DNA of 64,000 nucleotides from a virus (Duplodnaviria; Heunggongvirae; Uroviricota; Caudoviricetes). This document shows positions 55,140-56,446 of the stretch, piece after piece (the stretch's first letter is position 1; every line of letters starts with the position of its first letter). The stretch lies in IMG/VR virus record IMGVR_UViG_2541047913_000007; one strand, given 5' to 3'. The notes beneath the pieces were generated by a model. That model was not told the origin of the DNA. It saw nothing but the letters and a program-made list of their open reading frames with translations, and searched no databases. The position numbers and the translations under genes were made by a program.

Positions 55140-55682
55140 GTGGCTAAAAAAGGCGACTTTAAGCCTACCCAGAAAGAGGTTGACCAAGCTATTACTCGCT
55201 TGAAAAAAGTAACTTTTAGTGGAGTTACATGGACCGGAAGTGAGGGACGAACCCCAATCTGGTTTAAATTGGATCTCAAAGCTTTTGATGAAATTGGCAA
55301 CCCAATCACAGGCATAAGATTTATGCTTCACTGGCGTCCTCCTATCGTTGAAGGGGTGGATATAGTGAAGATTTCATTTGTGATGTTTCTTCATGACAGG
55401 CGCATTTACGCGCTTGATCCGTACCCTGCGGATAACAAGCCACACCGTAATAAATCTATAGTGAACCATCCAGATTTTGTTGAGGTGGCTCGAGGTCCTC
55501 ACTATCACATGTACTTCGAATCAGCTGGGGAAGAAATTGCACTTAAGCTTGAAACGAACATCAAGCCAGATGATTTTTTTGGCTACTGGAATTATTTTTG
55601 CGAGGCGCTTAATATCATATATGAAGGCAGCCCACCTTTACCTAATCAAGATAAATCAGGTCAGTTATCATGGGAAATGTAA
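55140..55682 (+). CDS. Unrecognised protein, first gene of two-gene cassette in the rexA position downstream of cI
   Basis: 180-aa ORF beginning at GTG 46 bp after cI stop; AT-rich; no motif recognised; no similarity to RexA as recalled. Confidence 0.55.
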   Translation: MAKKGDFKPTQKEVDQAITRLKKVTFSGVTWTGSEGRTPIWFKLDLKAFDEIGNPITGIRFMLHWRPPIVEGVDIVKISFVMFLHDRRIYALDPYPADNKPHRNKSIVNHPDFVEVARGPHYHMYFESAGEEIALKLETNIKPDDFFGYWNYFCEALNIIYEGSPPLPNQDKSGQLSWEM

Positions 55683-56446
55683 CGTGTTCAACAGTCATAT
55701 CTAAGCTCGGGTTTGAATGCCACCCAATGAGCGACACGTTGCTGCGCGTTATTAGTCCATTCACATACTACGATGATTGTGAGCAGATAAGTGTATTCGT
55801 TCAAGAGATGAGTGGTCAGTATAGGGTTACAGACTACTGCGATACATTGATGAATATTGAATCACGCGGCATCCACCTGACTAAAAAGAAAATTGATCTG
55901 ATCAGGTCATCACTCGCTTCGCAAGGAATTTCATTAAATGACTCTGGAGAGATATCTGCGTGGGCAGATGAGTCGTCCGTTGGACAGGTAACTGCAAATG
56001 TTATTCGTGGTGGGATTCTTGCATCCGCCCAAACTGCTGATTGGTATGCTGAGGTCAAAGACGATAAGTTCGAAAAATGTGTAATCAGTTACTTAAAATC
56101 AGCAGGGCTTGGGAAGCGACTAGCCTTAAAGGAAAAAGTGAAAGGTATTAGTGGGCATAACATTACTGTTCCGTTAACGCTAAGGAATGAGTCTCGACTA
56201 ATACCACCAAAACGCGGGTTTACGGTAAGCCTTGCCAGCAGTAAGGGATGGAATACTGCCCACTCAACAGTTGGGAAGATTGTTGACTTAAGTCAGGTCG
56301 TTCCTGACATAAACAATAGATTTGTAATAGTTGACAGCGATGGGTTAACACCTGAGCTACAGCAACTATCACTACTATTTAATGATACCGCACGAGTGTT
56401 GCCATTCCATACCAGAGACTCTTGGATTGAGTCTCTGGTAGCCTAG
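55670..56446 (+). CDS. Unrecognised protein, second gene of rex-position cassette
   Basis: 258-aa ORF overlapping the first by 13 bp; soluble (no TM segments), unlike RexB; followed by terminator. Confidence 0.6.
   Translation: MGNVTCSTVISKLGFECHPMSDTLLRVISPFTYYDDCEQISVFVQEMSGQYRVTDYCDTLMNIESRGIHLTKKKIDLIRSSLASQGISLNDSGEISAWADESSVGQVTANVIRGGILASAQTADWYAEVKDDKFEKCVISYLKSAGLGKRLALKEKVKGISGHNITVPLTLRNESRLIPPKRGFTVSLASSKGWNTAHSTVGKIVDLSQVVPDINNRFVIVDSDGLTPELQQLSLLFNDTARVLPFHTRDSWIESLVA

Follow-up and report, generated by a model that had tools for sequence, protein, structure and literature searches.

In the 64,000-nucleotide stretch of the Caudoviricetes record IMGVR_UViG_2541047913_000007 (hereafter the window), the interval that phage lambda devotes to rexA and rexB, between the cI repressor gene and the immunity-region terminator tIMM, was found to hold two overlapping genes of a different kind, here called A and B, which make up a credible and widely conserved candidate for a defence system. 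The reading that we favour, held tentatively as the likeliest of those weighed below, is that A and B form a complex expressed in the lysogen that blocks superinfecting phages, with B as the effector and A as a regulator, sensor or co-catalytic partner. The fit of the pair to its slot, its lack of relationship to RexAB, its conservation under selection as a pair, and its occurrence beside many different repressors are together in keeping with a lysogen-expressed exclusion cargo.

The limits of the replaced segment were defined by local BLAST alignment with lambda (Table 1). On the cro/cI side, window positions 54065-55093 correspond to lambda 38255-37227 with 96.2% identity, the left breakpoint falling exactly at the cI stop codon (55093). 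On the right side, homology is regained at 56445 and runs to 56724 (lambda 35831-35559, 90.7% identity), covering the last rexB codons, tIMM, OL3-OL1 and PL. As a result of this segment swap, 1351 bp are found here in place of the 1395-bp rexA-rexB segment, the boundaries of the cI transcription unit are kept, and the new segment fills precisely the space between the cI stop codon and tIMM. The initial annotation had described cI, cro, OR and OL/PL as essentially those of lambda, and the comparison bore this out: cI shares 235 of 237 residues with lambda CI (the changes being T3A and K71N) and Cro shares 64 of 66, the operators OL1-3 and OR2-3 are identical to those of lambda, and a single mismatch was found in OR1. 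It was likewise correct in placing in this interval two open reading frames (ORFs), for proteins of 180 and 258 aa, that overlap by 13 nt. The gap between cI and the first of them is 46 nt. The same annotation had called the genes AT-rich, and their guanine-cytosine (GC) content is indeed lower than that of the window (42.0% for A and 43.5% for B versus 50.3%); the deviation is moderate and resembles that of cI (45.7%).

An intrinsic terminator had also been proposed to close the cassette, and this assignment was confirmed by its homology to lambda tIMM and by folding. The hairpin stem at 56452-56457 pairs with 56464-56469 and is followed by a U-tract at 56470-56477, and the 51-nt stretch examined folds with -20.2 kcal/mol (z = -4.8), a stability equalled by 0 of 200 shuffled sequences. 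In phage mEp332, an identical sequence carries the annotation of immunity-region terminator. No terminator-like site was detected on the + strand from cI to 56446 by a consensus scan, which also missed tIMM itself. PRM, whose position we take from established lambda knowledge, with a transcript presumed to be leaderless at the cI ATG (54380), is the presumed promoter of the entire cI-A-B unit.

It was verified that the occupants of this slot are not RexA and RexB, as the initial annotation had held. The best BLASTP match of A and B to RexA/RexB had an E value of 0.9, and the profiles of both families gave no match. The likeness to lambda rexAB is that of a two-gene cargo lying in the same slot and within the same unit boundaries, from the cI stop codon to tIMM and upstream of OL/PL, and transcribed in the same direction as cI. 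In lambda, rexAB is expressed in the lysogen together with cI. The proteins themselves differ in size, since RexA and RexB have 279 and 144 residues and A and B have 180 and 258, and also in kind, since RexB is a polytopic membrane protein and the A-B pair includes none. The highest 19-residue hydropathy was 1.22 for A and 0.79 for B, in comparison with 2.39 for RexB, which agrees with the earlier remark that the second protein lacks transmembrane segments. Additionally, RexA has an RdgC-like fold (PMC12315714), whereas the folds of B are chaperone-like and nuclease-like. Other lambda-immunity phages were found to carry either hicAB (mEp234 and HK106) or different genes between cI and tIMM, and a previous study described the cI-N region as a mosaic hotspot, with rexAB in lambda and bstA in BTP1 (PMC8585504, citing Degnan 2007).

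Every fetched locus holding a B homologue was scanned with profiles of both families, the set comprising 80 IMG/VR contigs, 17 species-representative genomes, annotated phages (ev207, Pseudomonas phage phPA-G and Burkholderia phage phi644-2), E. coli chromosomes and metagenome contigs; the genome scan for B relatives was made from a 4-sequence alignment. All of the 108 loci had an A homologue directly upstream of B in the same orientation, the two ORFs usually overlapping or abutting, across Enterobacterales, Pseudomonas and Burkholderiales. Both proteins matched protein families of phages that have no known function, A belonging to PHROG 2017 (E = 7e-74) and B to PHROG 1960 (E = 3e-119). When compared with relatives of 83-91% identity, the ratio of non-synonymous to synonymous substitution rates (dN/dS) lay near 0.05 for A and between approximately 0.015 and 0.1 for B, synonymous sites being saturated, and A and B are accordingly real genes under strong purifying selection. 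The notion that they are chance or decaying ORFs without function can be regarded as effectively refuted: in its favour stands one related IMG/VR copy (L053, 2579-3893) in which A and B are each split into two frames, by frameshifts or sequencing error, and which may be a decayed copy, whereas dN/dS lies far below 1 with dS saturated, the pairing holds without exception across bacterial orders, both proteins gave confident models (predicted local distance difference test, pLDDT, of 87.6 and 84.4), and the PHROG matches are strong. The ev207-type pair is 41% identical to the present one in A and 51% in B, and this faster divergence of A fits a role as regulator or sensor for A and as effector for B.

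Some observations on individual loci accompany this survey. In three records, Pseudomonas phage VB_PaD_phPA-G and two metagenome contigs (L003 3486-4004, L008 4561-5007 and L108 approximately 3117-3575), an A-like gene that had been left unannotated or uncalled does lie ahead of B and is in frame, indicating that database counts of the pair are underestimates. In one of these, a metagenomic prophage (L008), a gene of 162 aa with a signal-peptide/lipoprotein-like N-terminus (3965-4453) lies between the repressor and the A-B pair, so that the slot can hold stacked cargo. A 518-nt contig labelled Actinomadura rugatobispora (L098) carries an enterobacterial-type A/B junction with 57% identity to B residues 3-101, which is probably assembly contamination.

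The occurrence of the pair downstream of cI-like repressors, a point raised by the initial annotation, was found to be the rule and to extend well beyond the lambda repressor. The gene upstream of the pair, on the same strand, nearly always encodes a cI-like repressor with helix-turn-helix (HTH) and S24 domains, and clustering at 70% identity separated the repressors found beside it into 20 groups or more. In two loci, the pair was found without a repressor nearby: in L109 (3537-4747) it is located between UDG and Mpo1-like genes on a chromosomal-looking contig, and in L108 (3117-4315) it follows a DnaB-like helicase gene and precedes a PIN_12 gene. The variety of repressors and the two repressor-free loci indicate that the pair is mobile and self-contained and that it strongly favours the repressor operon as its site. 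In the ev207 locus, the repressor gene is itself a mosaic (L002 2715-3410), residues ~93-231 matching the window cI in all but one position and the N-terminal DNA-binding domain being different, and the recombination point within it adjoins the cargo slot. In 5426 complete E. coli genomes, the A-B cassette was found in 61, rexAB in 99 and this cI type in 618.

This distribution bears on whether the pair serves defence at all. It could instead be a cargo that tunes the prophage life cycle, through the lysis-lysogeny switch or induction, or the physiology of the host, which would agree with its nearly constant attachment to a cI-type repressor. In two reports (bioRxiv 10.1101/2021.04.19.439022, PMC11077077), RexA, which occupies the same slot, is described as biasing the switch, and 55% of the transcription units predicted by the tool DefensePredictor showed no defence phenotype (PMC13092281). 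However, the association of the pair with 20 or more unrelated repressor types, and its presence in two loci (L109 and L108) where neither a repressor nor prophage genes are found nearby, accord poorly with a function tied to one particular switch. A DNA-binding HTH domain was detected in neither A nor B by Pfam searches that included their families. A role of this kind is consequently considered distinctly unlikely.

The contention that neither protein has a recognisable motif, and that the family is unrecognised, did not survive profile searches. Protein B matches Pfam DUF1828 (PF08861) over residues 30-112 with 40.9 bits, above the cut-off of 22, and DUF1828 is matched by 77 of 77 members of its family. 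Its AlphaFold model (pLDDT 84.4; predicted TM-score, pTM, of 0.51, as expected for two domains) comprises an N-terminal alpha/beta domain of residues ~1-125 and a C-terminal alpha-beta-beta-beta-alpha-beta domain of residues ~132-258. On the basis of aligned lengths and of published HHpred results for a sister protein, the N-domain was assigned to a secretion-chaperone/YbjN-like fold and the C-domain, DUF1829-like, to the restriction-endonuclease-like fold of the PD-(D/E)xK clan. Among structures with the restriction-endonuclease fold, the model matched Can2 (10.4), NgoMIV (9.9), BstEII (9.7), PspGI and AF1548 (9.5) and NucC (7.8), and the core alpha-beta-beta-beta-alpha-beta arrangement of the clan is present in the C-domain. 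For the sister protein, 51% identical to B, HHpred placed DUF1828 at 25-114 and DUF1829 at 155-241 with a probability of 98.8 and clan PDDEXK (PMC13092281, Table S5). B itself gave no match to Pfam DUF1829 (PF08862) at E <= 1, and 23 of 77 of its homologues did match, with a best E of 1.7e-6. In the C-domain, G159, S161 and D206 are invariant, K203 is conserved in 98% and D222 in 92% of members, and the N-domain has a conserved set of its own (C6, C17, P30, F31, D36, D55, D58 and G67, including the motif SDNGDTL).

Protein A is less readily placed. Its match to Pfam DUF6978 (PF22398) reaches 23.6 bits, below the cut-off of 29.6, and covers profile positions 77-133 of 133, that is, the C-terminal part; 15 of 64 members of the A family match this profile at E <= 0.01. 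No NCBIfam family was matched by A or B. AlphaFold predicted a small beta-rich protein with confidence (pLDDT 87.6), and structure searches with this model found no relative among solved structures. A PDB sequence search with the family profiles returned only chance-level matches (IL-18 with E = 1.4, and a spike-repeat artefact), and a likeness of the A hairpin 'GPHYH' to cupin, HNH or DUF4160 proteins is not claimed here, no such family being among the best Pfam or structure matches. When 1.84 billion representatives were searched exhaustively by profile (E <= 0.001), only 196 clusters of A relatives were obtained, nearly all of them stand-alone proteins of 150-185 aa, and no informative domain fusion was found among them. 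Across the family, K22, R88, H102 and H121 are invariant and P120, H123, F153, N158 and I159 nearly so, and this conservation pattern of Lys, Arg and His suggests a catalytic or metal site. At the C-terminus, L167, P168, G174 and Q175 are kept in approximately 70-85% of members in a region of low model confidence and are lacking in Burkholderia-type A proteins, and this tail would fit a docking peptide.

Computational defence calls have already been made for this family, both halves of the pair matching the PADLOC entries PDC-M24A and PDC-M24B. The match of B to PDC-M24B is weak and partial (E = 5.4e-7, 27.5 bits, profile positions 4-167 of 256), as is that of A to PDC-M24A (E = 3.8e-4, 18.8 bits, positions 78-135 of 146). 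Within the families, PDC-M24B is matched by 77 of 77 B members (best E 3.9e-18) and PDC-M24A by 4 of 64 A members. PDC-M24 has a two-gene layout as well, with similar sizes (approximately 146 and 256 aa), and the pair is, as far as these profile comparisons go, a sister clade of PDC-M24 and not a confident PADLOC member; PDC entries are themselves unpublished, unverified candidates (PMC11811056, PMC12409345). A recent study (DefensePredictor; Science 2026, PMC13092281, Tables S5 and S10) gave the label 'Predicted novel defense gene' to the ev207-type pair WP_001062368.1/WP_000968518.1 of an ECOR strain (log-odds 4.9-6.3), and the window protein A (WP_001074607.1) is the cluster representative in the same listing. 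The ECOR proteins are direct homologues of A and B and, in lambdoid phages, likewise occupy the slot downstream of cI; however, they belong to a different allele group and accompany a repressor with a different DNA-binding domain. The ev207-type pair is not among the 94 tested or the 42 validated units tabulated in that study, where the validation rate was 45% overall and 13 validated systems had PD-(D/E)xK domains (PMC13092281). In the initial description of the pair as a strong candidate for an undescribed exclusion or defence system, 'strong candidate' is fair and 'undescribed' is only half right.

Comparison with characterised systems revealed partial likenesses. HipAD (DS-6), a two-gene, prophage-borne E. 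coli defence system validated in the same study (PMC13092281), also has a DUF1829-like C-terminal domain in one of its proteins, although this assignment had an HHpred probability of only 0.78; the A-B pair lacks a HipA kinase, and the N-terminal domain is DUF1828 in B and DUF3037 in the HipAD partner. BstA of the Salmonella prophage BTP1 is an abortive-infection cargo encoded downstream of, and presumably co-transcribed with, the repressor and is found in diverse Gram-negative prophages (PMC8585504), but it is a single unrelated protein and is accompanied by the self-immunity DNA element aba, of which no counterpart was found here, no search aimed at one having been made. With Can2/Card1, NucC and enzymes of the NgoMIV/Cfr10I group, B shares 8-12% identity and does not have the canonical catalytic residues in place, and the pair has neither a CARF/cyclic-nucleotide sensor domain nor a partner cyclase. 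The layout of small co-directional genes with a 13-nt overlap, adjacent in all 108 loci, recalls type II toxin-antitoxin (TA) modules. A pure addiction module that stabilises the prophage by post-segregational killing, with no anti-phage role, would be in keeping with a mobile pair of overlapping genes and with the presence of hicAB in the same slot of mEp234 and HK106. Such an explanation is nevertheless improbable, given that no TA family in Pfam, NCBIfam or PADLOC was matched by A or B, that no antitoxin-type DNA-binding domain was found (neither ribbon-helix-helix (RHH) nor AbrB domains were detected in either protein), that plasmid-style addiction brings little gain to an integrated prophage, and that many TA modules at this position prove defensive anyway.

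According to the favoured reading, A and B would be produced continuously in the lysogen by transcription with cI from PRM (and PRE), in the manner of rexAB, and would shield it from superinfecting phages through exclusion or abortive infection. B would be the core of the system, its DUF1828 domain serving as a sensor that binds a protein or ligand and as a docking module, and its DUF1829-like domain as the effector that attacks nucleic acid after activation. A would be an obligatory partner, translationally coupled to B, and may act as a regulator, as the sensor of the trigger or as a second catalytic subunit.

Several points weigh against this arrangement. The B family does not conserve the D...(D/E)xK signature that canonically lies on strands beta-2 and beta-3, and the beta-3 Asp, present in distant members, has been lost in the enterobacterial clade; if B acts as a nuclease, it would have to do so through a non-canonical site, and alternatively the C-domain may be non-catalytic. 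The B active site may be rearranged, as in the Cfr10I/NgoMIV or Vsr types. The PADLOC (E = 4e-4) and Pfam (23.6 bits, below the cut-off) matches of A are weak, its Lys/Arg/His cluster looks enzymatic, so that A might be the effector, and transcription from PRM is presumed by analogy, being taken over from lambda. In the full-text literature searched, nothing functional was found for DUF1828, DUF6978 or PDC-M24, and no defence phenotype or experiment for the A-B pair; that coverage did not extend to Brenes & Laub 2025 (Cell Host Microbe), which is reportedly a screen of E. coli prophage defences. In HipAD, moreover, which is the one validated system with a DUF1829-like domain, the protein carrying this domain is a non-toxic and possibly DNA-binding partner and not the effector, the DUF3037+DUF1829 protein having been proposed to be antitoxin-like with a predicted DNA contact (PMC13092281).

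The main rival explanation is a TA-like defence in which the roles are reversed, A being the enzymatic effector, for example a metal-dependent or RNase-like hydrolase, and B the neutralising or sensing partner. In such a system, the chaperone-like domain of B would hold A, and its degenerate nuclease-like domain would bind either DNA or a cue from the phage, a role like that proposed for the HipAD partner. The invariance of K22, R88, H102 and H121 and the near invariance of H123 and N158 in A are typical of catalytic sites, B is without canonical PD-(D/E)xK residues, and the secretion-chaperone fold of its N-domain is a classic effector-binding module, while a conserved A tail with low model confidence is what would be expected of a docking peptide. 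Despite this evidence, the reversed arrangement is considered unlikely, and the lysogen-expressed complex with B as effector is retained as the preferred reading. A broader proposal, possible but doubtful, is that the pair represents a new class of defence carried on the repressor operons of temperate phages, in which A would have an enzyme fold not seen before (with Lys, Arg and His, and possibly a metal), B would join a chaperone-like sensor to a nuclease fold with a rearranged site, and the phage cue would be recognised in a manner unrelated to RexAB, to CBASS/Can2-type systems and to known TA systems.

In lambdoid phages, the interval from cI to N has historically been known as the site of rexAB, the abortive-infection system known for longest, and here it holds a widespread and strongly conserved pair, one protein of which has no solved structural relative. 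The frequency of the cassette in complete E. coli genomes is similar to that of rexAB, and its family extends through Gamma- and Betaproteobacteria. If the pair defends the lysogen, it would provide a new effector and sensor architecture for prophage-borne immunity and would help to explain why rexAB is scarce among lambda-immunity prophages (99 genomes with rexAB versus 618 with this cI type). The claim is limited, since the family has already been flagged by two prediction tools and a defence cargo at this site is to be expected and not surprising. As a 1.3-kb E. coli cassette in a promoter context that is understood, with obvious positions for point mutants, the pair is easily testable.

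Table 1. Features of the immunity region in the window, with the A-B pair in its cI-to-tIMM slot
Feature	Position	Strand	Remarks
cro, lambda-type	54079..54279	-	64/66 aa identical
OR1, OR2, OR3	54306..54369		OR1 54306-54322 (1 mismatch), OR2 54330-54346 (exact), OR3 54353-54369 (exact)
PR	54332-54304	-	
PRM	54345..54373	+	-35 TAGATA 54345-54350, 17-nt spacer, -10 TAGATT 54368-54373; by lambda homology
cI repressor, HTH_3 + Peptidase_S24	54380..55093	+	235/237 identical to lambda CI
Gene A, GTG start, 180 aa	55140..55682	+	PHROG 2017
Gene B, ATG start, 258 aa	55670..56446	+	PHROG 1960; DUF1828 + DUF1829-like
Intrinsic terminator, tIMM homologue, GC stem + UUUUCUUU	56452..56477	+	closes cI-A-B unit
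OL3, OL2, OL1	56632..56694		OL3 56632-56648, OL2 56652-56668, OL1 56676-56692; all exact lambda sequences
PL, TTGACA-17-GATACT	56666-56694	+	right-hand boundary of the slot

Further features were noted outside the slot. An IS3-family (IS629-like) insertion sequence at 52601-53907 (orfA 52652-52978, orfB 52975-53865) was found approximately 30 nt into the cII gene of the prophage, and its flanks match, with 100% identity, a copy of the same prophage that lacks the IS (L005 7587-7592). This insertion disrupts cII and splits the PR operon between cro and the replication genes, leaving the cI-A-B unit intact, and the prophage is for this reason probably defective. Beyond the end of the lambda homology at 56724, an N-like antiterminator ORF of 127 aa (56943-57326, + strand) is of the HK97/mEp234 type and not lambda N, and at this ORF RefSeq annotates only a 69-nt 'regulator' pseudogene fragment on near-identical prophages. 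On the nin region side, upstream of the replication genes, related copies of the prophage (L005 2463-3964) also contain a RelE/ParE-HTH pair together with a DUF4145 gene, which are candidates for further accessory or defence cargo.

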